A stretch of 64,000 nt of DNA from an uncultured Gaiellales bacterium (GCA_964468985.1 CAYXXE010000001.1:4581-68580), one strand, 5' to 3'; numbered from the stretch's first letter, positions 719 through 35,531 are shown. Notes: generated by a model not told the origin, from the letters alone. Made by a program: numbers and translations.

Positions 719-734
719 CCAAACGGTTGCTTGA
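719..734. promoter_or_regulatory. operator-like palindrome CAAAC-N4-GTTTG, copy A
   Basis: CCAAAC GGTT GCTTGA lies in the 75-nt gap between the crotonase stop and the amidohydrolase start. One mismatch in the right half-site. Confidence 0.45.
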
Positions 735-784
735 TTATTTAACTTGGCCCTTGTACGCTCGGCCGAGCGGATAGGAGGATTGAG

Positions 785-1855
785 ATGTTGGATGGAATGA
801 TCCTTGCCGACGGTGTCGTGCACGGGTACAACTGGACGCCTGAGAACTGGGCCGTCCCTGAAGCTGCGCTCGGCGCGGCGGCCGGCGCAGGGTTCCACGG
901 GTTTCTGACCCCGGACGACGCATCGCGGCTGCGCCCTGACGACTTCCTGCGCGACTGGACGGCGGACGATCTCGAGGAGATCCTGTTCGCCGAGTCGGCG
1001 CTCGATCTCGTCGCTTACCACGGAACGCCGATCTGGGACTTCTTCAAGGACGGGCATTCCGATACCGAGAAGGGGTTCGAGCTCAAGAAGCGCAATCCCA
1101 ATCGTGTCCTGGTCTATGGAGCGGCCAATCCGTTCGAGGGCGACAAGGCTCTGCGCGACCTCGAGGAACTCGCTGATCGCGGAGTCGATGCGATCAAGGT
1201 CTACGCGGCCCGCTACCACGAAGGGCGCACCTACGAGCAGCGCCTCGACGACCCGGAGTTCGGATACCCCTTCATCCAGAAGGCACTCGACCTCGGTATC
1301 AAGGTGATCGCCACTCACAAGGCGATGCCGTTCGGGCCGGTACGGTCGGCGCCCTACGGCGTCCAAGACCTCCCCGAGGCATGCTCCATCTTCCCGAACA
1401 TGACGTTCGAGGTCGTGCACACGGGCTTCGCTTTCGTCGAGGACACCGCATTCCTTGCGGGGCTTCCGAACTGCTGGTTCAACCTCGAGGCGTCTGCCTC
1501 GCTGATCTATCCCGCACCGCGCCGCTTTGCGGAGTTCCTCGGCCTCTTTCTACAGTCAGGCGCCGGCGACCGGATTATCTTCGCGTCGGGATGCGCGCTC
1601 GTCCATCCCCGCCCGCTGATCGAGAAGCTGCTCGAGTTCGAGATGCCGCGCGATCTCGTTGAGGGTTTCGGCTACCCGGAGCTCACACCCGAACTGAAGC
1701 GAGGGATCCTGGGCGAGAACTACCTGCGGATGCACGGCCTCGACGCCGACGCTTTTCGGGCATCGATCGCCGACGACGAATGGTCGCGTCTCCAGGAGGC
1801 CGGCCTCGATGAGCCGTGGTCGCACTACCGGGGGCGGGCTCATGCCAATGCCTGA
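785..1855 (+). CDS. amidohydrolase-2 family (TIM-barrel metal-dependent hydrolase/decarboxylase-like) protein
   Basis: 356-aa ORF with GGAGG 6 nt upstream of the ATG. IKVIATHKAMPFG, EVVHTGFAF and DRIIFASGCALVHP resemble amidohydrolase_2 motifs. Confidence 0.75.
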   Translation: MLDGMILADGVVHGYNWTPENWAVPEAALGAAAGAGFHGFLTPDDASRLRPDDFLRDWTADDLEEILFAESALDLVAYHGTPIWDFFKDGHSDTEKGFELKKRNPNRVLVYGAANPFEGDKALRDLEELADRGVDAIKVYAARYHEGRTYEQRLDDPEFGYPFIQKALDLGIKVIATHKAMPFGPVRSAPYGVQDLPEACSIFPNMTFEVVHTGFAFVEDTAFLAGLPNCWFNLEASASLIYPAPRRFAEFLGLFLQSGAGDRIIFASGCALVHPRPLIEKLLEFEMPRDLVEGFGYPELTPELKRGILGENYLRMHGLDADAFRASIADDEWSRLQEAGLDEPWSHYRGRAHANA

Positions 1856-2240
1856 AGCGGAAGCGGCAGGACTGGCCGACCACGTCTGGAGCGCGCTCGA
1901 TCATGTTCTCGATCCATGCAGCCGTTTCAACGGGACGCGATTGAGCCTCGTCGCGCTCGGCATGGTGGACGAGATCACGGTCTCGGAGGATGGAGCAGCG
2001 CAGATCAGCCTGCTCCTCGATGACCCGACGTGCCTCTACCTCGTCGAGATCCACCGTGAAGTGATCGCAGCTGCGAACTCGGTTCCGGGGATCACCGCTG
2101 CGACGGTCTCCTTGCGCTCCGACATCCTTTGGGGAAGAGAGCGAATGACGGATGTTGCGCAGCGACAGCTCGAACACCGTCGCCCTGCTCGGGTTATTCC
2201 TGTGAGCTCCGTCCACCGCACGAATGGCGCCGCGGCATGA
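1842..2240 (+). CDS. DUF59/PaaD-like (MIP18 family) small protein
   Basis: HVWSALDHVLDPCSRFNGTRLSLVALGMVDEITV...LLLDDPTCLYLVEI fits the DUF59 pattern (DP...LG.V, T..C). I prefer the ATG at 1842, which overlaps the upstream stop by 14 nt. The ATG at 1809 is an alternative. Confidence 0.65.
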   Translation: MPMPEAEAAGLADHVWSALDHVLDPCSRFNGTRLSLVALGMVDEITVSEDGAAQISLLLDDPTCLYLVEIHREVIAAANSVPGITAATVSLRSDILWGRERMTDVAQRQLEHRRPARVIPVSSVHRTNGAAA

Positions 2241-2677
2241 GCGGGTCTGGGTCGCTGACAATGAACCGGCTATCCGTTTCGGCTTCAGCGGCCGAAGCGC
2301 TCGTTTCGGCCGCACAGGGACGCGCCCAGGAAATCGGAAATGCGGTCGTCATTGTCGTCTGCGACGTCGATGGCCTGCCAAAGGCGCTCTTGCGCATGGA
2401 TGGCGCTTCATCGATGTCGCTGCGGCTGGCCCACGACAAAGCGGCCACTGCTGCGTCGTTCGGTGTGAGCACGGAGCAGTGGTTCGACCTCATCAAAGAC
2501 GATGGTGCGTTGCTGAACGGTGTGCCGTCGTCCCCGGGCTTTTCGATCATCGGTGGTGGATATCCGCTTCGAAGCGGCGGCCAGCTCGTCGGTGCGATCG
2601 GAGTCAGCGGCGGAGCTCCGGCTGAGGATGTCGATTGCGCCCGGACCGCCGCTGCCGCGCTCGGCTTCGAGGCCTGA
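2237..2677 (+). CDS. GlcG/HbpS-like (DUF336) putative cofactor-binding protein
   Basis: ATGA overlap with the DUF59 stop. VVIVVCDVDGLPKALLRMDGA, AHDKAATAASFG and GGGYPLRSGGQLVGAIGVSGGAPAEDVDCA are classic DUF336 motifs. Confidence 0.8.
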   Translation: MSGSGSLTMNRLSVSASAAEALVSAAQGRAQEIGNAVVIVVCDVDGLPKALLRMDGASSMSLRLAHDKAATAASFGVSTEQWFDLIKDDGALLNGVPSSPGFSIIGGGYPLRSGGQLVGAIGVSGGAPAEDVDCARTAAAALGFEA

Positions 2678-2684
2678 CGCCAGC

Positions 2685-3839
2685 TTGTTCGACTTCAGCC
2701 TGACCGCGGAGCAAATCCAGCTCCGAGAGACTGTGCGCGCCATGATGGCTCGCCACGCGCCGCCTGCTGTTCTCAGGCAACTCGACGAGGCGCACGACTA
2801 TCCGTACGAGCTCTACGCTCAATGGGCCGAACTCGGGCTCTTGACCCTGCCGTTTCCGTCTGAGGTTGGTGGCTCCGACGGCGGGGTTGTCGATCTGGTG
2901 CTGCTCGGAGAGGAACTCGGTCGATCGGGCTACGACCTGACGGGAATCTATGGGACGCCGCTCTTCACAGGCCTGAATGTTCTCCATCACGGGACGGCCG
3001 AGCAGCGCGAGCAGTACCTTCCGCCGCTGCTCGAAGGCAAGATCAGGCTGAGCGTCGCGATGACCGAGGCCGGCGCGGGCTCAGACGTCGGTGCCATGCG
3101 GATGCGGGCCGAGCCGTTCGGCGACGGGTTTGTTCTCAACGGCGAAAAGGTGTTCGCGAGCGGCGCCGGAGTCGAAGACACGTTCATCTGTGTCTACGCA
3201 CGTACGCGCCGAGACGGCCCGCACCAGAGCGCGATCAGCGCGTTTCTGGTCGACAACCGTTCACCAGGCCTGACGATCGTGAACATACCGACCCTCGGTC
3301 GGCACCTTTTCCCGACGACCCAACTCGTCTTCGACAACGTCGAGGTTCCCGCCGACGCCTTGCTCGGACCGCTTCATGGTGGCTGGGACGTCCTGCTAGC
3401 TGGCCTACGCCTCGAACGGCTGGTGACGTCGGCTGCGTATGTTGGCAACGCGCAGGCGGTCGTGGACGAGGCGCTCGAATACGCGAAGCAGCGCGAACAA
3501 TTCGGCCGCCGCATCGGCGACTTCCAGGCGATCGCGCACCTACTCGCAGACATGGCCACCGATGTTGAGGCCGCGCGCTGGCTGACGTACCGCGCTGCCT
3601 GGCTCCTCGACACGGGTCAGGATGCCCTCCTCGAGATCTGCATGGCCAAGCTCTTCGGCTCGGAGCGCTTCGTCCAGATCGCCCGAAACGGTCTCCAGAT
3701 CCTCGGAGGATACGGCTATTCGATGGAGTTCCCGATGCAGCGGCACATGCGCGCGGCGCTCGGCTCCACGATCACCGCGGGCACTTCACAGATGCAACGG
3801 GACATCATTGCGCGCCAGCTCGGCTTGCGGCCTCGCTGA
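2685..3839 (+). CDS. acyl-CoA dehydrogenase
   Basis: The in-frame TTG at 2685 gives (M)FDFSLTAEQIQLRETVR, a typical ACAD N-terminus, and 384 aa. MTEAGAGSDVGAM and the C-terminal QILGGYGYSMEFPMQRHMRAA are ACAD motifs. The tracked ORF start at 2520 would overlap the GlcG-like gene. Confidence 0.9.
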   Translation: MFDFSLTAEQIQLRETVRAMMARHAPPAVLRQLDEAHDYPYELYAQWAELGLLTLPFPSEVGGSDGGVVDLVLLGEELGRSGYDLTGIYGTPLFTGLNVLHHGTAEQREQYLPPLLEGKIRLSVAMTEAGAGSDVGAMRMRAEPFGDGFVLNGEKVFASGAGVEDTFICVYARTRRDGPHQSAISAFLVDNRSPGLTIVNIPTLGRHLFPTTQLVFDNVEVPADALLGPLHGGWDVLLAGLRLERLVTSAAYVGNAQAVVDEALEYAKQREQFGRRIGDFQAIAHLLADMATDVEAARWLTYRAAWLLDTGQDALLEICMAKLFGSERFVQIARNGLQILGGYGYSMEFPMQRHMRAALGSTITAGTSQMQRDIIARQLGLRPR

Positions 3840-3850: not shown

Positions 3851-4498
3851 CTACGTTCTCGCGCTCCTCAGCCCATTGAGCGCGAGGTCGGCAGCCAGTT
3901 TGCCGAGCTTGCGAGGCGAGACTCGTCCCTCGGGGCGATACCACGTATACGCCCAGTTCATCGACCCAAGAATCAGATAGGCGGCGATCTTGGCGTCGAC
4001 CTCCTCCGCCACTTCGCCCGCTCTTTGGGCTTGCGTGATGAGCTCCGTGATGTACCGCTCGAACTGCTTGCGCTGCTCGATCAAGCGCGGTTTTCGCTCC
4101 TCACCGACCAGCTCGAAGTCGCTGTAGTAGATCGCGATCTTGGTCGTGTGCTCGGCGATGAAGTTGACGTGCGCTTCGATGTACTCCGCGAGTTTTTCGA
4201 GCGGCCCGAGCCCCTCGAGCGCCTCGACCCGATCGATCTGCGCGCGGGCGAGGTCGTAGGTCTCGCTCAGCACGGCGAAAAGGAGGTCCTCCTTGGAATC
4301 GATGTAGTAGTAGAGACTGCCCTTCAGCAGCCCGACCTCGTCGGCGATCTCCTGGATCGAGGCCGCGGAGTAGCCTCGGCGGCGAAAGACTTCCGTCGCT
4401 GCCTCGACGATCTCCTGCCGGCGGGCTCCGAACTTCTGTCCCTTACGCCTGCCCGCGGGCGCCCGCGCGACGACGCCATCGTCTTCGGCCGCCGTCAT
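3851..4498 (-). CDS. TetR family transcriptional regulator
   Basis: RRQEIVEAATEVFRRRGYSAASIQEIADEVGLLKGSLYYYIDSKEDLL is the TetR N-terminal HTH. It is divergent from the SDR gene and operator copy B lies in the shared promoter. Confidence 0.9.
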   Translation of the reverse strand: MTAAEDDGVVARAPAGRRKGQKFGARRQEIVEAATEVFRRRGYSAASIQEIADEVGLLKGSLYYYIDSKEDLLFAVLSETYDLARAQIDRVEALEGLGPLEKLAEYIEAHVNFIAEHTTKIAIYYSDFELVGEERKPRLIEQRKQFERYITELITQAQRAGEVAEEVDAKIAAYLILGSMNWAYTWYRPEGRVSPRKLGKLAADLALNGLRSART

Positions 4499-4560
4499 AG
4501 CCGAGAGCGAAGAGATCGGAATTGGTTACGAGGCGCCTTCAGGTGGCGGATAGTACACTC

Positions 4561-4576
4561 TCAATCGAACGTTTGA
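4561..4576. promoter_or_regulatory. operator-like palindrome CAAAC-N4-GTTTG, copy B (TetR/SDR divergent promoter)
   Basis: TCAATC GAAC GTTTGA, one mismatch in the left half-site. It overlaps a second near-palindrome, TGATAGATATCA, at 4574-4585. Confidence 0.55.
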
Positions 4577-4600: not shown

Positions 4601-5401
4601 TTGGACGATTCTACGCTGAGCAGGGGACGGAATGCCATTTCTGGTCCGGCGGACATCTTCCGAGTCGACGGGAAGGTGGCGATCATCACCGGAGCGAGCG
4701 CCGGGCTTGGCGCCCGGTTCGCCGAGGTTCTGAACGTCGCGGGGGCGTCCACGGTTCTAGTCGCCCGTCGCTACGACCGGATCAGTGCGCTCGCCGATCG
4801 ACTCGGTCGCTCGGTCGCCTTCGAGGCAGACCTGTCCGATCCCGGCGTCGCCGCAGGCATCGTCGACGCGGCGGTCTCCGCCTTCGGTCGCGTCGACATC
4901 GTTGTCAACAACGCCGGGATTACGAACATCGCGCCGGCGGTCGACGAGACTATCCAAGACTTCCAACGCCTTGTGACGGTCAACCTCGTCTCCGCCTTTG
5001 CTCTTTCGCAGAGCGCCGCTCGTGTCATGGTCGCCTCGGGCGGCGGGAGCATAGTCAACGTCGCATCGATCGTTGGCCTCTTCGGCATCGGGCAGATGCC
5101 TCAGGCCGCGTATGCGTCGTCAAAGGGTGGGCTCGTCAACCTCACCCGTGAGCTCGGCGCTCAGTGGGCGCGTCAGGGGATCCGTGTCAACGCGCTCGCG
5201 CCCGGGTTCTTCGAAAGCGAAATGACAGAAGGTCTCTTCGCCAGCGAACGCGGTCTGGACTGGGTTTCCAAGCGAACGCCGATGGGCCGTGCTGGTGCGG
5301 CCGGCGAACTCGACGGAGCCCTCCTCTTCCTCTGTAGTGAGGCTTCGAGTTATGTCACCGGCCACATCCTCGCCGTCGATGGCGGCTGGACGGCAATCTG
5401 A
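4601..5401 (+). CDS. short-chain dehydrogenase/reductase (SDR)
   Basis: TTG start with GGAGA 7 nt upstream. Motifs: GKVAIITGASAGLG (TGxxxGxG), NNAG, and YASSKGG (YxxxK). Confidence 0.9.
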   Translation: MDDSTLSRGRNAISGPADIFRVDGKVAIITGASAGLGARFAEVLNVAGASTVLVARRYDRISALADRLGRSVAFEADLSDPGVAAGIVDAAVSAFGRVDIVVNNAGITNIAPAVDETIQDFQRLVTVNLVSAFALSQSAARVMVASGGGSIVNVASIVGLFGIGQMPQAAYASSKGGLVNLTRELGAQWARQGIRVNALAPGFFESEMTEGLFASERGLDWVSKRTPMGRAGAAGELDGALLFLCSEASSYVTGHILAVDGGWTAI

Positions 5402-5416: not shown

Positions 5417-6922
5417 CTACGTCGCGAGGTTGATGAAGACCGACTTCGTCTCCGTGTACTCGTCGAGTGCGTCGATTCCGAGCTCTCGCCCGACGCCGCT
5501 CTGCTTGAAGCCGCCGAAGGGACGCCGGTACTCGAGGGCGCGATAGGTGTTCACCCAGACGGTGCCGGCGCAGATTCGCGGAATCAGACGGTGCGCGCGG
5601 CGGATGCTCTCCGTCCAGATCGCACCGCCGAGGCCAAAGGTCGTCTCGTTGGCGAGACGCACTGCGTCGTCTTCATCCTTGAACGGGATCACCGCCCCGA
5701 CCGGACCGAAGATCTCCTCGCGCGCGACGCGATCGCTGTTTCTCACGCCGGTGAGGATGGTCGGCTCCACGAAGAAGCCGTCGCGGAGGACCCCTGTCGT
5801 CGGTCGCCCACCGCCGACCAGCGGACTCGCTCCGTCTGCCTCGGCAATCCGGAGATAGTGGAGCACCTTCTCGAGTTGCGCACGTGACGCGACCGGAGGA
5901 ATCTCGGTGCTGGCGGCAAGCGGGTCGCCGAGCCTGAGCTCCGCCGTTCGCCTCGCGAGTTCCGCATAGAACTCGTCGCCGACGGTCTCTTCGACGAGTA
6001 TCCGCGAGCCTGCGATACAGCTTTGACCTGCGGCGCTGAAGATCCCGCTCATCACGCCGCCTACTGCGAGGTCGAGGTCGGCGTCGGCGAAGATGATGTT
6101 CGGCGACTTACCGCCGAGTTCGAGAGACACACGTGCGCTACGCCCTGCGGCGGCCTGTGCGATCGCCTGTCCAGTGGCCGTCGATCCGGTAAAGGCGATG
6201 TGGGCTACGAGTGGATGGTCGACGAGCGCTCGTCCGGTCGGATCACCGAAGCCTGTGACGACGTTGACGACACCCGGCGGGAAGCCCGCCTGGACGCAGA
6301 GTTCGCCGAGACGGAGGGTCGAGTTCGGCGTGACTTCTGATGGCTTGACGACGACCGTGTTTCCCGCCGCTAGAGCGGGCATCAATTTGTATGCGAGCAG
6401 AAGGAGGGGGCTGTTCCAGGGTGTGATGGCGGCCACCACACCGACGGGCTCACGCAGCGTGTAGCTCACCATCTGGTCGAGGTTGGACTGCGAGGTGTAG
6501 CCGTGGACAGTCTCCGCCAGGCCCGCCATGAAGTAAGTGAGCTCGGCGATGTAGGGAACGACGGCCCGCATCTCGCTCGACAACTTGCCGTTCTCGTGGA
6601 CCTGCAGAAGTGCCAGGTTCTCCGCGTCGTCCGCGATGAGCTCTGCGAGGCGCCGAAGGAGCGCCGCACGCTCCTTCGGTTTCGCCTGCGACCACCCGCC
6701 GTCGAACGCAGACCGTGCCGCCCGCACCGCGCGGTCGACATCGCCGGGCGAGGCGACGGGCACTTGACCCCAGGTCTCGCCGGTGAACGGATACTCGCAG
6801 GTGAACGATTCACCGGTCTCGCCCTCGACGAACTCCCCGTCGATGAGCAGCTTGTAGGCCCGCCGCGGCGAGAGCTCGCCGTGCCAGGGATCGGCCGCGC
6901 TCTCTGTCAACTGCGTCCCCAC
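5417..6922 (-). CDS. NAD(P)-dependent aldehyde dehydrogenase
   Basis: 501 aa. Motifs: ITPWNSPLLL, VSLELGGKSPNIIF, GQSCIAGSRILV (catalytic Cys) and EEIFGPV. GTG start at 6922. Confidence 0.92.
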   Translation of the reverse strand: MGTQLTESAADPWHGELSPRRAYKLLIDGEFVEGETGESFTCEYPFTGETWGQVPVASPGDVDRAVRAARSAFDGGWSQAKPKERAALLRRLAELIADDAENLALLQVHENGKLSSEMRAVVPYIAELTYFMAGLAETVHGYTSQSNLDQMVSYTLREPVGVVAAITPWNSPLLLLAYKLMPALAAGNTVVVKPSEVTPNSTLRLGELCVQAGFPPGVVNVVTGFGDPTGRALVDHPLVAHIAFTGSTATGQAIAQAAAGRSARVSLELGGKSPNIIFADADLDLAVGGVMSGIFSAAGQSCIAGSRILVEETVGDEFYAELARRTAELRLGDPLAASTEIPPVASRAQLEKVLHYLRIAEADGASPLVGGGRPTTGVLRDGFFVEPTILTGVRNSDRVAREEIFGPVGAVIPFKDEDDAVRLANETTFGLGGAIWTESIRRAHRLIPRICAGTVWVNTYRALEYRRPFGGFKQSGVGRELGIDALDEYTETKSVFINLAT

Positions 6923-7119
6923 GTTCGCTCATGCATGAAATTGCCCGACTCGTGGTAGCGGTTCACCGTCGGCATGTAACCGGTGAGGCCATTCTCGAGA
7001 ACCATCGTCTCCGTCTCGAGGAATGTCGTAGGCGCCCTCCGCGGCAGCTCGTGAAGTTTGCCCGGAGCGAGCGGGAGAGTCTCCTGGGCCACGTCGCGTC
7101 TGCTCTCCTCTCGGTTCAT
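6907..7119 (-). CDS. hypothetical small protein (70 aa), candidate unannotated ORF coupled to the aldehyde dehydrogenase
   Basis: ATG at 7119, and the stop overlaps the ALDH start by 16 nt. Third-codon positions are mostly G/C like real genes here. It would shrink an atypical 314-nt gap to 117 nt. No clear Shine-Dalgarno and no recognisable family. Confidence 0.3.
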   Translation of the reverse strand: MNREESRRDVAQETLPLAPGKLHELPRRAPTTFLETETMVLENGLTGYMPTVNRYHESGNFMHERTWGRS

Positions 7120-7166
7120 CGGATCTGACGATTGACCACAGACTCTAACGCATCGCAAACCATGCG

Positions 7167-7188
7167 ACAAACAATCGTTTGGTGGTTT
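7167..7188. promoter_or_regulatory. operator-like palindrome CAAAC-N4-GTTTG, copy C (perfect half-sites)
   Basis: ACAAAC AATC GTTTGG followed by TGGTTT. The whole 22-mer is identical to 35510-35531. It lies between the ALDH/small ORF (minus strand) and the SDR (plus strand). Confidence 0.6.
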
Positions 7189-7236
7189 CAGCGAACGTTG
7201 GTACGGTGACTTTCATCATCCGGCAAGGAGGTTCGT

Positions 7237-8028
7237 GTGAACGCGACTGGCGCTTCGACATCAACACGCCGCCTTGACGGCCGCGTCGCGATCGTCGTCG
7301 GGAGTGCGACCGGCATCGGCGCGGCGTCGGCCGCCCGACTCGCCCAAGAGGGCGCCTCGGTCGTCCTCGCCGACCTGAACCTGGAGGAGGCCGAGCGGAC
7401 GGCGGAGCGGATCGTCGCCGAGGGGGGCGACGCCGTCGCACTGCCGGCGGACGTTGGCGACGATGCCTCGATAGAGGCGATGATCGAAGCGACGATCGGT
7501 CGCTTTGGTCGGATCGATGCCGTTCATTCGAACGCCGCCGATACATCGAAGGCGACCTCCGATCGCGATCTGGATGTCGTCTCGATTGACTTAGACGTCT
7601 GGGATCACATCCTTCGCATCAACCTCCGCGGTCACGTGATCGTCCTGCGCCATGCCATTCCCCACATGGTGCGTCAGGGCGGCGGAGCGATCGTCTGCAC
7701 TTCGTCGGACGGCGCACTGCTCGGATTTCCCGTCTGGTCGGCGTACTGCGCCTCGAAGGCGGGTGTCAACGCCCTTGTCCATCACGTCGCAGCACGCTGG
7801 GGCAAGGAGGGGCTCCGCTGCAACGCTGTCTCACCTGGGGTGATCCTGAGCGATGCAGGGCAGGGGCTGTCGGAGGAATTCAGGGAAGCCGCGCTCGCGG
7901 GCAACAACAGCACACGACTCGGGAAGCCCTCGGACATCGCCGCTGCCGTCGCCTACCTCGTCTCCGACGACGGTGCCTGGGTAACCGGCCAGGTGATCTC
8001 TGTCAACGGAGGCGCGCTGCTCCGATGA
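7237..8028 (+). CDS. short-chain dehydrogenase/reductase (SDR)
   Basis: GTG start with AAGGAGG 5 nt upstream. Motifs: GRVAIVVGSATGIGAA, NAADT and YCASKAG. Confidence 0.9.
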   Translation: MNATGASTSTRRLDGRVAIVVGSATGIGAASAARLAQEGASVVLADLNLEEAERTAERIVAEGGDAVALPADVGDDASIEAMIEATIGRFGRIDAVHSNAADTSKATSDRDLDVVSIDLDVWDHILRINLRGHVIVLRHAIPHMVRQGGGAIVCTSSDGALLGFPVWSAYCASKAGVNALVHHVAARWGKEGLRCNAVSPGVILSDAGQGLSEEFREAALAGNNSTRLGKPSDIAAAVAYLVSDDGAWVTGQVISVNGGALLR

Positions 8029-8052: not shown

Positions 8053-8070
8053 ACCAAACTTCCGTTTGGT
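8053..8070. promoter_or_regulatory. operator-like palindrome, copy D (perfect 7+7), overlapping a -35 element
   Basis: ACCAAAC TTCC GTTTGGT. Its last T starts a perfect TTGACA (8070-8075), and TAGCCT (8094-8099) follows 18 nt later. It is upstream of the Liv-type importer operon. Confidence 0.65.
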
Positions 8071-8163
8071 TGACAAATGGGGATCGAACGGCATAGCCTT
8101 GGCGCCGGCTCTCGCACCGGCGGGCGCTCACGGTGGTATCCCCGAAGATTGGAGGCGTTCGAA

Positions 8164-9378: not shown

Positions 9379-9397
9379 GAGCAACTCGCAATACCTC

Positions 9398-9450
9398 CGT
9401 CGGCCTTCTCCCATGACATATCCGAATCACGTCATGGGAGAAGGCCGACG
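9398..9450 (+). promoter_or_regulatory. perfect 20-bp stem / 13-nt loop hairpin between the binding-protein and permease genes
   Basis: CGTCGGCCTTCTCCCATGAC (9398-9417) is the exact reverse complement of 9431-9450. No T-tract follows. It starts 20 nt after the binding-protein stop codon. Confidence 0.6.
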
Positions 9451-9506
9451 CTGTCATCTCGACACGCGAACGGCGTTGTTGGGCTTCGTCCGGCCAGAGG
9501 CATGAC

Positions 9507-13567: not shown

Positions 13568-13610
13568 TCGGGGACGGGGTGGATCTTACCGCGATTGAAC
13601 TAGTATTCTT

Positions 13611-13626: not shown

Positions 13627-13648
13627 ATCTCGGGACGACCACTCCGCC

Positions 13649-22445: not shown

Positions 22446-22447
22446 AG

Positions 22448-26266: not shown

Positions 26267-26281
26267 CAGAAAGCAGGAGAA

Positions 26282-26674
26282 ATCGGAGCGCACCATACAA
26301 CCCCTTCCCGCGTCTCGTGGCACGACACGGATGCGAGTGGTCGAATCCACTTCACGGCGGCGTTTCGCTGGGCCGAGGCTGCCGAGGCGGGGTTGATGCG
26401 CGCGGCCGGAGTGGATCCCTCGACGTCGATCGACTATCCACGCCGGAAAGTGGAAGCCGAGTACCTGATTCCATTGCGTTTCGACGACGCCGTCGAGACG
26501 AAGATCACGGTCGATCGGATCGGCCGGACGTCGCTCACGCTCGCCTGGGATGTCACCTCCCGCGGGCGCGTCGCCATCCGGGGCTTGCACACGATCGTTC
26601 GAGTCGATGGCGCCGGCCGGCCGAAGGAGCTGGATGCAGAGATCGGAATCGCGCTTGGGGGCGCTGGGAGGTAA
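26282..26674 (+). CDS. 4HBT/YbgC-type hotdog acyl-CoA thioesterase, start codon unresolved
   Basis: RVSWHDTDASGRIHFTAAFRWAEAAE...YLIPLRFDDAVE...VDRIGRTSLTLAWDV is a hotdog thioesterase pattern. No ATG/GTG/TTG lies just upstream, so the coordinate given is the ATC at 26282. See the finding at 26096-26674. Confidence 0.55.
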   Translation: MGAHHTTPSRVSWHDTDASGRIHFTAAFRWAEAAEAGLMRAAGVDPSTSIDYPRRKVEAEYLIPLRFDDAVETKITVDRIGRTSLTLAWDVTSRGRVAIRGLHTIVRVDGAGRPKELDAEIGIALGGAGR

Positions 26675-29115: not shown

Positions 29116-30038
29116 GCGGAAAGGTCGCGATCGTCACCGGGGCAGGACGCGGCATCGGCCGCTCACACGCGCTTGCCCTCGCCGAGGCAGGCGCACGGCT
29201 CGTCGTCAACGATCTCGGGGTGGAGCTGTCCGGTGATGGTGCGGACATCACGCCGGCCGAGCAGGTCGCAGCACAGATTCGTGCAGCCGGCGGCGAGGCC
29301 ATCACCGACGGCGAAGACGTAGCGGATTTCACAGGCGCCGCACGGCTCGTACGTCGCGCAATTGACTCCTACGGTGACCTCGACATCGTCGTCAACAACG
29401 CAGGCATCCTCCGCGATCGCATGCTCGTGAACATGACCGAGCCCGAGTGGGACGCCGTCATGGCGGTCCACCTCAAGGGCCATTTCGCGGTTACCCGACA
29501 CGCCGCCGACTACTGGCGCCAGCGCGCAAAGGCGGGCGACGACGTGCGGGGACGCGTGATCAACACGTCGAGCCCGTCCGGGGTCTTCGGCAACGTCGGC
29601 CAGGCGAACTACGGTGCCGCAAAGGCCGGGATCGCGGCGTTTACCGTCATCACGGCGCTTGAGCTGGCGCGCTACGGGATCACGGTGAACTGCCTCGCGC
29701 CGAACGCGCGAACCCGGATGACCGAGGAGACGTTCGACGTTGCGGCGCCCGACGGGGATTGGGATCCGTTCGACCCGGCGAACACCTCCGTCGTCGTCGT
29801 CGCGCTGTGCGCGGACGCCGCCCAGGAGATCACGGGCCAGGTCTTCCACGTCTGGGGAGGAGCAGTGAACGCTCTCCAAGGGTGGGCTCCGGGCGAGCTC
29901 TTCGACGCTCCGGGCGGCTGGCAGGCGCCGGCGTTGCTCGCGGCGATGTTGGAGCGGTTTCCGGCCGGCGTCGCGCCAAGCGGACTAATGGCAGGCATCG
30001 AGGCTGCGGGCGGACGGGCCTTCGGAAAGGCGAGTTAG
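29103..30038 (+). CDS. long SDR of the MFE-2 / Hsd4A type (paralogue of 18016-18933)
   Basis: The TTG start overlaps the ACAD stop by 13 nt. Pattern: GKVAIVTGAGRGIGRSHALALAEAGARLVVNDLG...VVNNAGILRDRML...VHLKGHF...YGAAKAG. Confidence 0.85.
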   Translation: MADLSGKVAIVTGAGRGIGRSHALALAEAGARLVVNDLGVELSGDGADITPAEQVAAQIRAAGGEAITDGEDVADFTGAARLVRRAIDSYGDLDIVVNNAGILRDRMLVNMTEPEWDAVMAVHLKGHFAVTRHAADYWRQRAKAGDDVRGRVINTSSPSGVFGNVGQANYGAAKAGIAAFTVITALELARYGITVNCLAPNARTRMTEETFDVAAPDGDWDPFDPANTSVVVVALCADAAQEITGQVFHVWGGAVNALQGWAPGELFDAPGGWQAPALLAAMLERFPAGVAPSGLMAGIEAAGGRAFGKAS

Positions 30039-31201
30039 CTGCTGACCTGCGGCCGGGGGTCGCCGAGTCCCAGCGAACGCCCGATGATCTCTTTCATGAT
30101 CTCGTTCGACCCGGCCCAGATCTTCGTGACGCGCGCGTCTGCCCAGGCGCGAGCGACTGCGTATTCCTCCATGTAGCCGTACCCACCGTGGAGCTGGACG
30201 CAGGTGTCGATGATCCGGTTCTGCACGTCGGAGGCCCACCATTTCGCCTTGGCGCTGTCGACGTTGGAGAGCTCGCTACGCCTGGCTTCGTCGATGCACC
30301 GATCGACGTGCGTTCGCGCCACGTCGAGGAGCGTAGACGCCTCGGCAAGGGCGAAGCGGCTGTTTTGGAAGGTGCCGATCGGCCTGCCGAAGGCATGGCG
30401 GGTCTTGACGTAGTCGATGGTGAGCTCGAGGACCGCTTCGGCGTGGGCGAGGTTGACGTACGCGGTGTGAAGGCGCTCTCGCGGCAGGTTCGCCAGCATG
30501 TGCTCGAAGCCGCGATCGATCTCGCCGATGACATTCTCGTCGGTCAACTCGATCTCGCTGAACCAGATCTCTGCCGTGTCGACCTCGTGCTGGCCCACCT
30601 TCGCGAGCTTCTGGCCGACCGCGTAGCCGGGGCTGCCCGTTTCGACGGCGAACAACGTGATCGCCTGGCGGTCGCCACCCGTTCGGGCCGCGAGGACGAC
30701 CAGGTCCGCGCTGGCGCCGTTCGTGATGAAGGTCTTGCTCCCGTTGAGCACCCAACCCGAGCCTCGACGCTCTGCCCGGGTCTTGAGCGCGGCAAGGTCA
30801 GAGCCGGCGTCAGGCTCCGTCATCCCGATGGCCGTCACGAGCTCGCCCGAGCAGAAACCCGGGAGCCAGCGTTCTCTTTGCTGCTCGGTCGCGAGGCTGG
30901 TCAGATACGGCGCGACTACATCGACCTGGATCCCGATCGACGAAGCGAAGCCGAGTCCCGCGCGTGCGAGTTCCTCGCAGAGCACCACGTTGAAGCGCAG
31001 ATCCTCGACACCTGCGCCTCCGTAGCGCTCGGGCACGTCCAGACCGAGCAGGCCCTCGGCGCCCGCAGCGATCCAGACGCTCCGGGGTATGCGTCGCTGA
31101 CTTCGGAACTCTTCGGCGCATGGAACGAGTTCCCGAGACACGAACGCCCGGACGCTCTCGCGAAACAGGTCGTGCTCATCCTCGAAGATCCTCCGGCGCA
31201 T
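30035..31201 (-). CDS. acyl-CoA dehydrogenase
   Basis: ATG at 31201, 1 nt after the DUF35 stop, gives MRRRIFEDEHDLFRESVRAF and 388 aa. Motifs: GMTEPDAGSDL, FITNG, QLHGGYGYMEEYAVARAWADAR. Confidence 0.9.
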   Translation of the reverse strand: MRRRIFEDEHDLFRESVRAFVSRELVPCAEEFRSQRRIPRSVWIAAGAEGLLGLDVPERYGGAGVEDLRFNVVLCEELARAGLGFASSIGIQVDVVAPYLTSLATEQQRERWLPGFCSGELVTAIGMTEPDAGSDLAALKTRAERRGSGWVLNGSKTFITNGASADLVVLAARTGGDRQAITLFAVETGSPGYAVGQKLAKVGQHEVDTAEIWFSEIELTDENVIGEIDRGFEHMLANLPRERLHTAYVNLAHAEAVLELTIDYVKTRHAFGRPIGTFQNSRFALAEASTLLDVARTHVDRCIDEARRSELSNVDSAKAKWWASDVQNRIIDTCVQLHGGYGYMEEYAVARAWADARVTKIWAGSNEIMKEIIGRSLGLGDPRPQVSS

Positions 31202-31202
31202 C

Positions 31203-31613
31203 TCAGGAGCTCGGCTCGAACCCGAGCAGCGTTTTGTCGCCGACCTCATAGAAGATCGACGTCATGCGCATTCCGGCGGCCAGCGCAGTCTCTTGTCTAA
31301 GCCGGCCGAGCAGCCGAACCCCTTCGTCCAACTCGACCGCGACGATCGTGTACGGGGTGTCGTCGACGAACGCCGGATTGAGCGGGACATGAATGACAAC
31401 CCACGAATAGACGTGGCCCACGCCGGCGGACTCGACCCGCCGCCACTCGATGGAGCCGCAGTACGGGCATGTCGGCTGTGGAGGGAAAAAGAACCGGCGG
31501 CAGCCGTCACAGCATGGAAGCAAGAGCTTCTGATTGGCCAACGCCGTCCACCACCACTCGCTGTCGATGTCAGCCGGCACGTCGACGAAGCCGTGCTTGA
31601 GTGGGTCCGTCAC
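31203..31613 (-). CDS. DUF35 protein (zinc ribbon + OB fold), stand-alone
   Basis: CCDGCRRFFFPPQPTCPYCGS is the four-Cys ribbon, followed by an OB-fold-like tail. The GTG start overlaps the upstream thiolase stop (GTGA). Confidence 0.85.
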   Translation of the reverse strand: MTDPLKHGFVDVPADIDSEWWWTALANQKLLLPCCDGCRRFFFPPQPTCPYCGSIEWRRVESAGVGHVYSWVVIHVPLNPAFVDDTPYTIVAVELDEGVRLLGRLRQETALAAGMRMTSIFYEVGDKTLLGFEPSS

Positions 31614-32779
31614 TCGTCCACCGAGAGGACGAGCGCCGAGCCGTCCTGTAGCGCTGCAGAGGTAACGACGCAGCGGTGTGCGTCCGTGACCTGCCGATCG
31701 CCGCCCCTCCGTTGCAGTTGGAGGACAGCTTCTGTGACCGTGTTCATCCCGTGGAGGTAGCCCTCACAGAGAAGTCCTCCGTGCGTGTTGACTGGCAGTG
31801 ATCCGCTGAGGCTTGTCTCGCCCGCCGAGACAAAGGCGCCCGATTCTCCACGATCGACCAGGCCAAGGCCCTCAAGTCCGAAAAGCACGACGCTGCTGAA
31901 GCAGTCGTAGATCTCGGCGAAGTCGACGTCCCGCGGACCGATTCCTGCGGACGCCCAGAGCCGGTCCGCAAGGTAGCTGTGGCAATTCCGCGACCAGTCG
32001 TCCCAACTGAAGAAGTCGCCCATGTCGAGCCCCGAGCCTGAGGGTGTGACCCAGGCTGCTCCCTGGATTACCGCCGGCGGTCGCGCGAGAGTGCGCGCGT
32101 GCTCGAGCGACGTCACCAGCACCGCGCAGGCACCGTCGACCTCGGTCGTGCAGTCGTGCGAACGGAACGGGTCGACGACGAACGGGGTCGCAAGATACTC
32201 GTCCATCGTCAAAGCTGTCCGTCGGATCGCGCGCTCGTTCTGCTCAGCGTAGGCGCGCTGTGCAAGGACGACCGCGCCGAGTTGCTCATGGGTAGTTCCG
32301 GTTTCGATCATGAATCGGCGAGCCCACAACGCGATCAATTGCGAGAAGGCTGTGAGTCCAATCGGATAGCGGTACTGGGCGGTGGATGAGCGGAACGGCT
32401 GTGAGCCGATGCGCACGCCGCTCCGTCCGTTGAGGGCCCGGAAGACGAGGACGTTCTTCGCGACGCCCGACGCGACGGCGAGCGCGGCGAGGGCGACCGC
32501 GTAGCAGGGCGCCTGACCGCCGAGGTTCAGGTCGATTGCGTACCGCAACTCGCGACGGCCGAGTGCGGTCGCGACGCTCTGAACGGGCACGGAGTCGTCG
32601 AACAGGCTGTAACTGACGATGCCGTCAACATCCGCTGCATCAACGCCGGCATCGTCGAGGGCTGCTCTGCAGGCGGTGGCGGCGAGGTTGAGGACGCTGA
32701 GGCCCGAGGCCTTGGTCAACTCCGTATAGCCGACCCCGACGACCGCGGTAGTGCCGAGAAATGAAGGCCGCTCGCGCAC
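31610..32779 (-). CDS. SCP-x / Ltp-type thiolase-fold protein
   Basis: 389 aa. TAVVGVGYTELTK, LNLGGQAPCYAV and NTHGGLLCEGYLHGMN form a thiolase-like fold pattern. It is paired with DUF35, as in Ltp/BbsAB-type systems. Confidence 0.85.
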   Translation of the reverse strand: MRERPSFLGTTAVVGVGYTELTKASGLSVLNLAATACRAALDDAGVDAADVDGIVSYSLFDDSVPVQSVATALGRRELRYAIDLNLGGQAPCYAVALAALAVASGVAKNVLVFRALNGRSGVRIGSQPFRSSTAQYRYPIGLTAFSQLIALWARRFMIETGTTHEQLGAVVLAQRAYAEQNERAIRRTALTMDEYLATPFVVDPFRSHDCTTEVDGACAVLVTSLEHARTLARPPAVIQGAAWVTPSGSGLDMGDFFSWDDWSRNCHSYLADRLWASAGIGPRDVDFAEIYDCFSSVVLFGLEGLGLVDRGESGAFVSAGETSLSGSLPVNTHGGLLCEGYLHGMNTVTEAVLQLQRRGGDRQVTDAHRCVVTSAALQDGSALVLSVDE

Positions 32780-32793
32780 CTGGACGCTCTCGG

Positions 32794-33618
32794 CTAGCCG
32801 AAATCCGGCCGGCGCTTCTCCGCGAACGCGTTCAAGCCTTCGAGCGAATCGCTATGTGTCAAGCAATACGAGACGGCGCGCTCACGCTCAAGACGGAGCG
32901 CATCATCGACCCCCGTCCCAGATGCGAGCCCGGCGTTGATGACGTACTTGATGTTCTCGACGCCGATTCGACTCTTCGCGGCAATAGCCTCGGCAAACGC
33001 CAGACCCTCGGTCAGGAGCGCGTCGTCGGGCACGACGCGGGTGACAAGACCCCAGTCCAAGGCTTCCCGCGAGCTCAGGAGACGTCCGGAGAGGATGAGG
33101 TCGCGGGCCCGGAACGGCCCGATGACCCGCGGCAGCAAGGCAAGTGACCCGGCGCCGCCCATCTGGCCGTAGTTCAGGTGGGCGTCGCCGATCTGGGCCG
33201 ACTCCGCGGCCCATGCGAAGTCGCAGCCGAGGAGGATCTCGAGTCCGCCGGCCGCCGTAAGGCCGTTCACGAGTGCGATCACCGGCTTGCGGACGTACCT
33301 CAAGCAGGCGACGAAGTCGGAGTACTCGTCGAGGAAGCGTGGGAAACGGACGGGGTCGCGCTGGAGCTCCAGGTAGCCCTTGAGATCGCCGCCGGCGCTG
33401 AACGCTCTGCCTCGGCCCGTCAGGAGGATCGCTCGCACGTCGTCGTCGTCGCTGAGGGCGTCGATCGCTGCCCGGAGTCCGCGGAGCATCTCCCAGTTCA
33501 CGGCGTTGAGCTGCTCCGGCCGATTCATCGAGACGATCGCCGCACAGCCCCGAGCGTCGCTCGACTCAGCCCACTCGACACGCTCGGTCTCGACATACGG
33601 CGTCCCCGTCTCGATCAC
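32794..33618 (-). CDS. enoyl-CoA hydratase (crotonase family)
   Basis: Motifs: IVSMNRPEQLNAV, GRGRAFSAGGDLK, NGLTAAGGLEILLGCDFAWA. I prefer the GTG at 33618 (274 aa). The tracked TTG at 33741 lies inside operator copy G and adds a low-complexity extension. Confidence 0.8.
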   Translation of the reverse strand: MIETGTPYVETERVEWAESSDARGCAAIVSMNRPEQLNAVNWEMLRGLRAAIDALSDDDDVRAILLTGRGRAFSAGGDLKGYLELQRDPVRFPRFLDEYSDFVACLRYVRKPVIALVNGLTAAGGLEILLGCDFAWAAESAQIGDAHLNYGQMGGAGSLALLPRVIGPFRARDLILSGRLLSSREALDWGLVTRVVPDDALLTEGLAFAEAIAAKSRIGVENIKYVINAGLASGTGVDDALRLERERAVSYCLTHSDSLEGLNAFAEKRRPDFG

Positions 33619-33736
33619 GCCGTCTCCTCCGTCCCATGCGCCGTCGAGCCGTAGCCGACTCCGACCCGGTTCTGAGAGGACGAGGCTGGGGCTCGATGCT
33701 TTGCCGGACGAACGATCATCATTCGCTCCTGATATT

Positions 33737-33754
33737 ATCAAACGACCATTTGAT
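33737..33754. promoter_or_regulatory. operator-like palindrome CAAAC-N4-GTTTG, copy G
   Basis: ATCAAAC GACC ATTTGAT is preceded by TATTAT. It lies in the divergent region between the crotonase operon and the LLM oxidoreductase. Confidence 0.55.
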
Positions 33755-33809
33755 TGCTAAGTCTGATTTTCAACTTAGCGTCGACGTTTCAGTCCTGCGG
33801 GAGCATCGC

Positions 33810-34808
33810 ATGCAGATCGGCTTTTCAATGGGACATGCGCAAGCGGGGACGAGTCCGCGTGATCTGATCGACCTTGCCTGCGAGGCGGACCGGCTCGGCT
33901 TCCACTCGGCGTGGACGGCGGAGGCCTGGGGTACTGATGCGGTGACGCCACTCGCCTGGCTTGGGGCGCTCACCGAGCGCATCCGACTGGGAACTGCGGT
34001 TATGCAGATCCCGGCGCGCACGCCCGCCAACGCGGCGATGACCGCTGCGACCCTCGATCTGCTCTCCGGCGGGCGATTCATCCTCGGCCTCGGCAACTCC
34101 GGCCCGCAAGTGGTTGAGGGCTGGCACGGCCAAGAGTGGGGCAAGCCGCTCGAAAAGCTCAGGGAGTACGTAGCGATCGTCCGGGCGGCGATTCGCAGCG
34201 AGCGCCTCGAGCACCACGGCACTCACTTCGACATTCCGCTCACGGGTGGAACCGGTCTCGGGAAGCCACTGCAGTTGATGGTCCGGCCGGTCAGAGCAGA
34301 CCTTCCGATCTATCTCGCGGCGATCTCGCCGAGGGCGGTCGAGCTCGCGTTTGAAATCGGTGACGGCTGGCTGCCGATCTTCTGGTCGCCCGAGCGAGCG
34401 CACGAGGTATTTCCGCTCGACCGACGCCGCCCCGGATTCGAGATCGCACCGTCCGTGCGGGTTGCGCTCGGGGACAACATCGCGGCGCAGCGCGAATCGC
34501 TCAAGGAGTACTTCGCGTTCTACATCGGTGGAATGGGCGCCAAGTCGCAGAACTTCTACAACGACCTCGCCGTTCGGTACGGGTACGAGGCGGCAGCGCG
34601 GACGATCCAAGATCTCTTCCTGGAGGGAAAGCGAGACCAGGCGGCTGCGGCGGTACCGGACACGCTCGTCGATGAGTTCGCCCTCGTCGGGCCGCGAGAA
34701 AGGATTCGTGACCGATTGTCGGCCTGGCGTGAGTCGGGCGTCACAACGCTGCTCGTCGCGACCCGAGACTCCGAAACCTTGCGCGCTGTAGCCGAGATCG
34801 GCCTCTGA
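33810..34808 (+). CDS. luciferase-like monooxygenase (LLM) class, probably F420-dependent oxidoreductase
   Basis: ATG at 33810 gives MQIGFSMGH. LGFHSAWTAEAWGTDAVTPLAWLGALTERIRLGTAVMQIPARTP and GRFILGLGNSGPQVVEGWHG are the LLM pattern. 332 aa. Confidence 0.85.
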   Translation: MQIGFSMGHAQAGTSPRDLIDLACEADRLGFHSAWTAEAWGTDAVTPLAWLGALTERIRLGTAVMQIPARTPANAAMTAATLDLLSGGRFILGLGNSGPQVVEGWHGQEWGKPLEKLREYVAIVRAAIRSERLEHHGTHFDIPLTGGTGLGKPLQLMVRPVRADLPIYLAAISPRAVELAFEIGDGWLPIFWSPERAHEVFPLDRRRPGFEIAPSVRVALGDNIAAQRESLKEYFAFYIGGMGAKSQNFYNDLAVRYGYEAAARTIQDLFLEGKRDQAAAAVPDTLVDEFALVGPRERIRDRLSAWRESGVTTLLVATRDSETLRAVAEIGL

Positions 34809-34880
34809 CCTCCGTTTGGAAAAGGTCAGGGCGCGGAAAGTAGACGTCCGCCCTGTGCGGCCTTGGGGCTGTAGGCCAAC

Positions 34881-34912
34881 GTGGCCCACGCGGCAAGCAC
34901 CGCGTGGGCCAC
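34881..34912. terminator. bidirectional terminator-like hairpin between convergent genes
   Basis: GTGGCCCACGCGG caagca CCGCGTGGGCCAC: a perfect 13-bp GC-rich stem with a 6-nt loop. A weaker 7-bp hairpin, CTGACCT...AGGTCAG, sits at 34805-34829. Confidence 0.55.
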
Positions 34913-35025
34913 TGCGAAGCGCTGTGTCGAGTTCGTCGACGGACAGCCTCGGAGCGCCCGCGCCCCGGGTGCCGCCTCTCGCCGTTCAGGCGCCGCAGGG
35001 TCGCCAGCGAGCTACCTGTTCGCCG

Positions 35026-35448
35026 CTACTCGCCGTCTTTCTCTTCAAGCTCCTCGTACCAGATGTCGAACGATCCGTTGGTGATCTCCATCACCGTCCA
35101 GCCGTTCTCGCTGTACGCAGGGCCGTGAAAGACGCCGGCGGGGATCATCCGGTACGAACCGGCCGTGAGCGTGATCGGGTCCGTGAGGTAGTCGGTGACG
35201 ACCTCGCCCTCGAGGATGATGCCCTGCTGGTCGAACGAATGCGCCTCGCGACGCTCACTGCGGTAGCCAGCAGGTATCCGCGCGACGTACGTCATTGCGC
35301 CGGTCTCCGGATCGTGAGCGAGGATGCAGCCCACGGCGCCGCTCGCGTGCTCGGCGGCGTCGTCGCCGCCGCCGAGGAGCCTCTCGATCGGCTGCCAGTC
35401 GAGTTTGTCGAGGTCAAGGCGAGTATGAAGGTTGGTGGAATACGCCAC
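35026..35448 (-). CDS. cupin domain protein
   Basis: 140 aa. GYRSERREAHSFDQQGIILEGEVV...GSYRMIPAGVFHGP is a cupin-like barrel. Operator copy H lies upstream. Confidence 0.65.
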   Translation of the reverse strand: MAYSTNLHTRLDLDKLDWQPIERLLGGGDDAAEHASGAVGCILAHDPETGAMTYVARIPAGYRSERREAHSFDQQGIILEGEVVTDYLTDPITLTAGSYRMIPAGVFHGPAYSENGWTVMEITNGSFDIWYEELEEKDGE

Positions 35449-35509
35449 GGGAGCCTCCTGGGTCGGTTACGAAAGGCGGAAGCCAGCCTAGCGCAGGCCA
35501 GGCTTGTTT

Positions 35510-35531
35510 ACAAACAATCGTTTGGTGGTTT
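35510..35531. promoter_or_regulatory. operator-like palindrome CAAAC-N4-GTTTG, copy H (perfect half-sites)
   Basis: ACAAACAATCGTTTGGTGGTTT is identical to 7167-7188. On the minus strand, TTGTAA, a 17-nt spacer and TAGGCT form a plausible promoter for the cupin gene that overlaps the site. Confidence 0.6.

Follow-up and report, generated by a model that had tools for sequence, protein, structure and literature searches.

Control of a large lipid-degradation supercluster by one TetR-family repressor, acting through a short palindrome at many promoters, has been described for the mycobacterial repressors of cholesterol/lipid catabolism KstR, with motif TnnAACnnGTTnnA and a spacer of 2 (PMC1995591), and for KstR2, with motif AnCAAGnnCTTGnT (PMC3068626). 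Published palindromic operators also include the Pseudomonas PsrA box, C/GAAAC-N2-4-GTTTG/C, with TTCAAAC-N4-GTTTGAA as its site at P. putida rpoS (PMC13104628), a Shewanella lipid-catabolism motif, AAtTtAAACgNNcGTTTaAaTT (PMC2532739), the operator of Thermus thermophilus PaaR (TTHA0973), CNAACGNNCGTTNG, and the site in its own promoter, AACAAACGACCGTT (PMC6651687), and the PfmR (TTHB023) consensus, (a/c)Y(g/t)A(A/C)YGryCR(g/t)T(c/a)R(g/t) (PMC7022988). Here, we describe a palindrome, CAAAC-N4-GTTTG, that recurs in the promoter regions of an acyl-CoA gene cluster in 64,000 nucleotides (nt) of DNA from an uncultured Gaiellales bacterium (GCA_964468985.1 CAYXXE010000001.1:4581-68580), hereafter the window. 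The copies are probably operators of the TetR-family protein of 215 amino acids (aa) encoded at 3851-4498, which would control the cluster by promoter occlusion with an acyl-CoA as effector.

A recurrent palindrome in an acyl-CoA gene cluster

Eight copies of the palindrome, here called boxes A to H, were found between genes of the window, at the positions and with the sequences that an earlier note had read by eye, three of them perfect and five with one mismatch. They are listed with their neighbours and with the promoter-like elements beside them.

Box A, 720-733, CAAACGGTTGCTTG, one mismatch: between an ECH gene (ends 709) and the gene for an Amidohydro_2-type protein of 356 aa (starts 785); -10-like TACGCT at 754-759
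Box B, 4562-4575, CAATCGAACGTTTG, one mismatch: in the promoter region shared by the divergent TetR gene (minus strand, start 4498) and SDR1 (plus strand, start 4601); -10-like TACTAT at 4550-4555, minus strand, 6 nt from the box
Box C, 7168-7181, CAAACAATCGTTTG, perfect: between the aldehyde dehydrogenase (Aldedh) gene (start 6922, minus strand) and SDR2 (start 7237, plus strand); -10-like hexamers 20 nt out on either side, at 7142-7147 (minus strand) and 7202-7207 (plus strand)
Box D, 8055-8068, CAAACTTCCGTTTG, perfect: between SDR2 (ends 8028) and the Liv-type importer operon; followed by TTGACA at 8070-8075, an 18-nt spacer and TAGCCT at 8094-8099
Box E, 13612-13625, CAAACGACCGTTTT, one mismatch: between a cupin gene (start 13567, minus strand) and the nine-gene acyl-CoA operon (start 13649, plus strand); -10-like TAATCT at 13625-13630 (plus strand) and TAAGAT at 13583-13588 (minus strand)
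Box F, 26252-26265, CAAACAATCGGTTG, one mismatch: between the APH-kinase/acyl-CoA-synthetase unit (minus strand) and the 4HBT-thiolase-ACAD-SDR unit (plus strand; ACAD, acyl-CoA dehydrogenase); promoter-like site on the minus strand, TTGATA at 26254-26249 and TAGACT at 26231-26226
Box G, 33739-33752, CAAACGACCATTTG, one mismatch: between the ECH-thiolase-like-DUF35-ACAD unit (start 33618, minus strand) and the F420-type LLM gene (start 33810, plus strand); -10-like TAGCGT at 33776-33781 (plus strand) and TAATAT at 33732-33737 (minus strand)
Box H, 35511-35524, CAAACAATCGTTTG, perfect: upstream of the cupin gene 35026-35448 (minus strand); -10-like TAGGCT at 35485-35490 (minus strand)

Perfect copies (7168, 8055 and 35511) number three against 0.04 expected, and copies with at most one mismatch number nine against 0.45 expected; neither count was reached in any of 100 dinucleotide-preserving shuffles of the window. 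When all 1024 five-nt arms were enumerated without bias at spacers of 0-10, CAAAC-N4 ranked top in intergenic DNA, and the next-ranked palindromes were shifted registers of the same motif. The eight boxes share the extended consensus yTAyCAAAC-rAyC-GTTTGrTAr; on a 22-nt matrix trained on these eight copies themselves they score 23-30, shifted registers of the boxes score up to 14, and the best unrelated position scores 12. By a Pfam/NCBIfam gene map, intergenic DNA makes up 2264 base pairs (bp), or 3.8%, of positions 1-59600, and eight of the nine copies lie in it (binomial P = 4e-11 for at least eight of nine). The ninth, CAATCTCGAGTTTG at 12118-12131, stands inside a LivG-type ATPase gene, has a low score on the extended matrix and is probably a chance-level match. 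Boxes C (7146-7189) and H (35489-35532) share 22 identical nt, ACAAACAATCGTTTGGTGGTTT, and H is a duplicate of C, so the sites that count as independent are seven, not eight. As a set, the copies listed in the earlier note are thus all intergenic, but two of them are not independent, one further copy is found in coding DNA, and another conserved box lies left of the window (see below). An overlapping variant, CAAAC-N0-GTTTG with one mismatch, is present in four boxes (720, 4566, 7172 and 35515), where 0.69 occurrences were expected.

Genes of the window, which has a G+C content of 65.6%, were mapped from calls on an identical 14-kb metagenome contig (L001), Pfam and NCBIfam scans, and inspection of start codons. 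All 13 transcription units (34 genes) between about 0.7 and 35.5 kb are preceded by a box. The 35-kb lipid half has one box per promoter-bearing gap, and its sole boxless gap is intra-operon (between binding protein and permease). The genes and units are as follows.

To 709, plus strand: ECH gene; its associated box is outside the window (outer box)
785-3839, plus strand: unit A, with genes for the Amidohydro_2-type protein of 356 aa, FeS_assembly_P/DUF59, an HbpS-like protein and an ACAD; box A
3851-4498, minus strand: TetR-family regulator, 215 aa, TetR_N and TetR_C_24; box B
4601-5401, plus strand: SDR1, single-gene unit; box B
5417-6922, minus strand: Aldedh, single-gene unit; box C
7237-8028, plus strand: SDR2, single-gene unit; box C
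8164-13044, plus strand: unit D, Liv-type importer, with a Peripla_BP_6 binding protein, a fused LivH/M permease and two ABC ATPases; box D
13046-13567, minus strand: cupin; box E
13649-23575, plus strand: nine-gene acyl-CoA unit, in the order ACAD, ECH, CoA-transferase III, ACAD, SDR, MaoC hydratase, DUF35/thiolase-like, thiolase, CoA-transferase III; box E
23568-26254, minus strand: APH kinase and AMP-binding acyl-CoA synthetase; box F
To 30038, plus strand: 4HBT-thiolase-ACAD-SDR unit; box F
30035-33618, minus strand: ECH-thiolase-like-DUF35-ACAD unit; box G
33810-34808, plus strand: F420 LLM of the Rv3520c subfamily; box G
35026-35448, minus strand: cupin; box H

No box was found in the remaining 28 kb (the sugar/peptide half), where no intergenic position scores above 6.2 on the extended matrix; this half carries sugar/peptide ABC systems, GntR/UTRA, ROK and LacI regulators, and other functions. 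The claim that the motif is confined to promoters of the lipid half therefore holds, with boxes before 13 of 13 units and no above-background intergenic hit past 35.6 kb, as does the claim that the window has no TetR gene other than 3851-4498, in whose divergent promoter box B lies.

The gene content hints at a branched or steroid-like lipid as a possible substrate. The set behind this hint comprises the LLM at 33810-34808, which matches TIGR03559 (F420-dependent Rv3520c subfamily) with 401.9 bits against a cut-off of 335, ChsH2-type DUF35/thiolase-like pairs at 19784-22445 and 31203-32779, CoA-transferases, many ACADs, the kinase, the cupins and the Amidohydro_2 protein. An Rv3520c-type LLM together with ChsH2-type pairs recalls mycobacterial steroid side-chain catabolism.

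For the APH-type kinase the sole in-frame ATG/GTG/TTG is the TTG at 26254-26252, within box F and upstream of the predicted -10, and the 4HBT thioesterase open reading frame (ORF) has no canonical start codon in 26255-26340, where an ATC at 26282 is preceded by AGGAG. The longest ORF of the solute-binding protein runs from an ATG at 8077, inside the predicted TTGACA/TAGCCT promoter; a likelier start is the TTG at 8164, which GGAGG precedes by 8 nt. Positions 59600-62700 hold long ORFs with high third-position G+C and no Pfam family, for example 60207-61928 (minus strand, 573 aa).

Conservation, promoter geometry and the candidate regulator

The TetR protein is 100% identical on three short metagenome contigs and has homologues of 74-88% identity on longer contigs (L086, L087, L164, L165 and L166/L167); in named genomes its nearest homologues are those of Gaiellaceae and Solirubrobacterales metagenome-assembled genomes, at no more than 64% identity, which places the organism with Thermoleophilia-like actinobacteria. 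Contigs L086, L087, L164, L165 and L166 are syntenic with the window by tblastn, and a matrix scan placed boxes at the orthologous intergenic positions in them, so that the check on orthologous loci proposed in the earlier note came out in favor of the motif. The boxes are conserved islands within diverged DNA. At site A, 22 nt, TTTACCAAACGGTTGCTTGATT, are invariant in the window, L086, L165 and L166, including the 'mismatched' GCTTG half, and the flanks have diverged. At site B the core AYCRAACGTTYGR is kept between the TetR and SDR1 orthologues of L086, L087, L165 and L166, and site C is kept as ACAAACRAYCGTTTG between SDR2 and cupin-Aldedh in L086, L087, L164 and L165. The importer gap orthologous to site D has two boxes in L165 (6157 and 6176), a weaker match stands at the place of site E in L165 (661), and for site G a box of L164 (478) lies upstream of the ECH3-operon orthologue. 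All related-contig hits fall between called genes except the weak one at L165 661 (score 12.5), which lies within the 5' end called for the ACAD2 orthologue.

A further conserved box, CAAACGTTCGATTG, is found about 1.9 kb left of window position 1 (L001 11392-11405), between a FAD_binding_2-cupin-ECH operon and an isocitrate-lyase-like gene, and again in L086 (16290), L165 (15090) and L166 (7513); the regulon thus reaches past the window. The cupin gene 35026-35448 has its orthologue between box C and the aldehyde dehydrogenase gene in four related contigs, from which it follows that the cupin and its operator-promoter were relocated or copied here, over a distance of about 28 kb. A tblastn search between Aldedh and box C (6923-7167) detected no remnant of a cupin.

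Promoter geometry was examined with the actinobacterial -10 pattern TANNNT, adopted because TATAAT-based criteria are too strict for actinobacterial DNA of 66% GC. In the window, TANNNT starts exactly 20 nt beyond the outer half-site at 5 of 16 box flanks (A, C in both directions, F on the kinase side, and H); across six genomes it does so at 10 of 54 flanks, with 3 more at 21 nt. Against an intergenic background of 0.0046 per position, these counts give P = 9e-9 (window) and 9e-14 (six genomes), values that are optimistic because C and H, like the orthologous sites, are homologous. The offset is retained while spacers diverge, and is retained in the orthologues of site A. An offset of 20 nt means that the terminal TTG of the box plus 3 nt forms a -35 hexamer (TTGATT, TTGATA, TTGGTG etc.) 17 nt from the -10, and at box F a consensus scan arrives independently at an overlapping promoter, TTGATA-17-TAGACT. 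The -10-like hexamer begins 6 nt from the box at B (TetR side), 1 nt from it at G (ECH side) and at -1 nt, overlapping its last base, at E (operon side), so that in these three cases the box covers the -35/spacer region. A half-site that doubles as the -35 fits the repression by promoter occlusion that the earlier note had suggested, and the box positions as a whole are consistent with steric exclusion of RNA polymerase. That suggestion had started from copy D overlapping a TTGACA hexamer; the hexamer is present, but it abuts the 14-nt core and overlaps the 18-mer as first read by one base only.

The 215-aa product has an N-terminal helix-turn-helix (HTH) domain (PF00440, TetR_N), which aligns with TetR proteins of the PDB, and a C-terminal PF17932 (TetR_C_24) domain. 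Its best PDB relatives are 3DCF, an uncharacterised Thermobifida protein, and, second, 3VPR (E = 2e-22), which we take to be Thermus PfmR; AibR, KstR2, Bacillus and B. halodurans FadR, DarR and MbdR follow with E = 1e-21 to 4e-13. KstR2, FadR and AibR respond to CoA thioesters, and the known effectors in this group of relatives are CoA thioesters or lipid-related. For MbdR the effector is 3-methylbenzoyl-CoA (PMC4424350). None of the NCBIfam equivalog models is reached at its cut-off, with 60.9 bits for FadR(Bacillus) (cut-off 200), 31.8 for KstR (280) and 19.5 for PsrA (300). Across the five related contigs no regulator other than the TetR protein stays syntenic with the boxes, and the HTH segment 40-70 of this protein is identical among the orthologues that keep boxes.

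Homologues were compared over a wider range, in loci from Actinomycetota, Chloroflexota, Proteobacteria and others. Over 137 non-redundant loci, the 300 bp upstream of the homologue carry boxes with at most one mismatch at 8 times the density found elsewhere, and at 142 loci 37% of the upstream regions score higher than 95% of random 300-bp windows. Perfect CAAACGATCGTTTG boxes stand upstream of Chloroflexota homologues on L037, L045 and L049, and perfect TTACCAAACGATCGTTTGATAA-type boxes lie about 120-140 nt upstream of Chloroflexota homologues of 34-36% identity. Many homologues carry other palindromes upstream (e.g., ACCAAACGTTTGGT and CTACC...GGTAG). The pairing of TetR and box is, on these comparisons, well supported but not proven. 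One homologue of 58% identity (P0014, L168 1-10934) sits at a contig end beside contractile-injection-system genes (Pvc16_N, Phage_T4_gp19), with no lipid genes in view.

A proposed TetR repressor weighed against other readings

From these data we infer that the TetR protein would bind as a homodimer to each copy of yTAyCAAAC-N4-GTTTGrTAr. In most promoters the -35 hexamer would be the outer half-site itself (TTG and 3 further nt), with a TANNNT -10 at a distance of 17 nt, and in the remaining promoters the box would abut the -35 or cover the -35/-10 spacer. The bound repressor would exclude RNA polymerase from the 13 transcription units (34 genes), its own gene included; the repressed set would take in the Liv-type importer, the acyl-CoA synthetase, the dehydrogenases, the beta-oxidation-type operons, the F420 oxidoreductase and the two cupins. 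Once substrate is imported and activated, its CoA thioester would bind the TetR_C_24 domain, the repressor would be released, and the whole cluster would be derepressed.

Several points weigh against this account. The motif scan covers the window and the related contigs only. A generic sigma-70 scan calls one promoter only (box F) and none at most sites, and the -10 assignments rest on the looser TANNNT pattern, with its background made explicit. Box B, in the regulator's own promoter, has one half-site degenerate in every genome, and in L164 no box stands immediately upstream of the TetR orthologue. At box D, box E (cupin side) and box G (LLM side) the centre of the box falls near -42 to -45, where activation is also compatible. 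Paralogues of the TetR_C_24 kind with similar helices may exist; a Gaiellaceae contig encodes two paralogous TetRs of 61-64% identity, and the Gaiellaceae paralogues go with a different, longer palindrome, the perfect 22-bp GTCAAACAAGCGCTTGTTTGAC (L005 1136, 3733 and 9923; L004 18280). Among the 142 homologues no HTH residue separates those with boxes from those without, since the helix is nearly invariant owing to how the loci were found.

The boxes might instead be true operators of a transcription factor encoded elsewhere, such as a TetR_C_24 paralogue or a regulator of lipid genes at large, with the local TetR gene merely one more target. The visible part of the genome is only about 69 kb, and the related Gaiellaceae contig carries the two paralogues already mentioned; moreover, the helix GLLKGSLYYYI is common to many homologues with differing upstream palindromes, so that specificity is not readable from the helix alone. 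Against this, the TetR is the sole regulator syntenic with the boxes in all five related contigs, its promoter carries a box in four of them, and motif-like sites are enriched upstream of homologues across phyla. We consider an outside factor unlikely.

Another reading accepts that the TetR protein binds the boxes and has it activate, or act dually, at some promoters, as PsrA does at rpoS. PsrA, whose operator core is the same, is an activator at rpoS and a repressor of other genes (PMC13104628), and at D, E (cupin side) and G (LLM side) a -10-like hexamer 23-25 nt from the box puts the box upstream of, or touching, the -35. A half-site serves as -35 hexamer at at least five promoters, however, and at three others the box lies over the spacer or the -10, all of them repressor positions; the nearest characterised relatives, KstR2, FadR, PfmR and PaaR, are repressors (PMC3068626, PMC7022988, PMC6651687). 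Activation or dual action is thus quite improbable.

It is very unlikely that the cluster lacks a dedicated regulator and that the palindrome consists of back-to-back divergent -35 hexamers (outward TTGnnn) belonging to a shared promoter design. The outer TTG does act as a -35 with a 17-nt spacer at several promoters, and in both directions at box C. Boxes A, D and H, however, can drive one flanking gene only, yet both half-sites are kept in each, and the non-promoter half of box A is invariant in four genomes. Conservation also exceeds a -35 hexamer, extending over CAAAC/GTTTG, the rAyC spacer and the TA flanks, and promoters of the sugar half are without the motif.

Chance matches or dispersed repeat copies, which would account for the coding copy at 12118 and for the identity of C and H, are effectively refuted by counts that no shuffle reached, by the top rank in the unbiased enumeration, and by unrelated flanks among the other copies together with conserved orthologous positions in other genomes.

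One further reading was tried and rejected. As an RNA hairpin or terminator, the palindrome would have a 5-bp A/T-rich stem, which is too weak; no terminator-like site coincides with any box, and the hairpin fails because most boxes are upstream of the -10 and hence outside the transcript.

Comparison with described regulators

Among published operators the PsrA box is the closest, having the same core as the boxes of the window (PMC13104628); it is absent from the earlier note, which had named boxes such as that of PaaR as closer than the KstR box. The two systems are also alike in having fatty-acid/acyl-CoA degradation genes as targets and a box in the regulator's own promoter. PsrA is nevertheless not an orthologue: the TetR protein is 25% identical to PDB 2FBQ over 137 aa, PsrA is not within its best 60 PDB relatives, its score on the PsrA NCBIfam model is the low one given above, and the recognition helices read GLLKGSLYYYI (TetR protein) and GVNLAAVNYHF (PsrA). 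Pseudomonas PsrA, whose targets include fadBA5 and rpoS, responds to free long-chain fatty acids and can act as an activator too, whereas the TetR protein is proposed to be an acyl-CoA-responsive repressor. The Shewanella lipid-catabolism motif, in the form AAACgNNcGTTT, likewise resembles the boxes (PMC2532739).

The likeness to PaaR pointed out in the earlier note is borne out by the literature at the level of architecture, AAC-N4-GTT, as is the difference from the AAC-N2-GTT spacing of KstR (PMC6651687, PMC1995591). The PaaR own-promoter site AACAAACGACCGTT resembles boxes E and G, and the CAAAC-N0-GTTTG variant in four boxes is reminiscent of the PaaR consensus AACnAACGTTnGTT obtained by REPSA, a method that selects and amplifies DNA protected from restriction endonucleases. 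No box fits the PaaR consensus CNAACGNNCGTTNG exactly; E is one base off, and the mismatches of the others fall on the G/C beside the spacer or within a half-site. PfmR shares the AAC-N4-GTT architecture, and its consensus fits 14 of 16 positions of cCAAACGatCGTTTGg. The Thermus systems, which govern phenylacetate and fatty-acid metabolism, differ in that few of the eight boxes match either consensus exactly, in belonging to another phylum, and in having other and far fewer targets; none of the PaaA, PaaB, PaaC or PaaE families turned up in the window ORFs that were scanned.

The KstR and KstR2 systems are alike in concept, as set out above, and in targets, which include Rv3520c-type F420 LLMs, ChsH2-type DUF35/thiolase-like pairs and many FadE/EchA-type genes. 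KstR2 and the TetR protein are clearly homologous (E = 3e-19), and some JGI entries label close homologues of the latter 'cholesterol catabolism regulator'. KstR differs in its motif spacer (2, against 4 in the window) and its NCBIfam model falls far short of its cut-off on the TetR protein. The boxes do not fit the KstR2 motif; a CAAG-N2-CTTG core is confined to L004 and L005, the Gaiellaceae relatives. There, GTCAAACAAGCGCTTGTTTGAC can be read as two CAAAC-N4-type boxes offset by 4 nt with a KstR2-like CAAG-N2-CTTG core, and it may be bound by two dimers.

Bacillus FadR (YsiA), AibR, MbdR and DarR have the same TetR_N/TetR_C_24 architecture as the TetR protein, within the E-value range given for the PDB relatives, and FadR too stays below its NCBIfam cut-off. 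To our knowledge, the operators of these four are unrelated in sequence to the boxes. Judged in silico, the TetR protein and its eight boxes have the features of the FadR/KstR2-like (TetR_C_24) class, namely an HTH domain, a predicted ligand domain, and a palindrome at target promoters and at the regulator's own.

A wider reading, which we offer tentatively, joins an ancient cross-phylum operator code, a -35-fused cassette and an uncharacterised pathway. CAAAC-N4-GTTTG may be an old code for lipid/acyl-CoA catabolism, kept by TetR proteins that have diverged to about 25% identity; its holders may include PsrA (Proteobacteria), PaaR and PfmR (Thermus), the Thermoleophilia-like protein of the window and the Chloroflexota homologues. 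Fusion of the operator to the -35 may have made a compact promoter-operator cassette whose duplication recruits genes, as in the copying of C to H with a cupin. If so, the 34-gene regulon would define a pathway, so far uncharacterised, by which uncultured soil actinobacteria break down a steroid-like or branched lipid.

The understanding of TetR regulons in general is unchanged by this locus. It provides a concrete candidate regulon for an uncultured Gaiellales/Thermoleophilia-like actinobacterium, with one regulator, nine operators, 13 transcription units and 34 genes. Genes of uncertain role (the two cupins, Amidohydro_2, DUF59, HbpS-like, the APH-type kinase and the Rv3520c-type F420 oxidoreductase) would be tied to one catabolic pathway and joined with a Liv-type importer and beta-oxidation-like operons, and the putative operator/repressor pair could be used for finding the inducer. 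The PsrA/PaaR-type operator would likewise be extended to Actinobacteria. Rather than a new mechanism, this is a system of the KstR/PsrA/PaaR kind, with one TetR protein, a short palindrome and many promoters of a lipid/aromatic-acid CoA pathway, in a poorly studied lineage.

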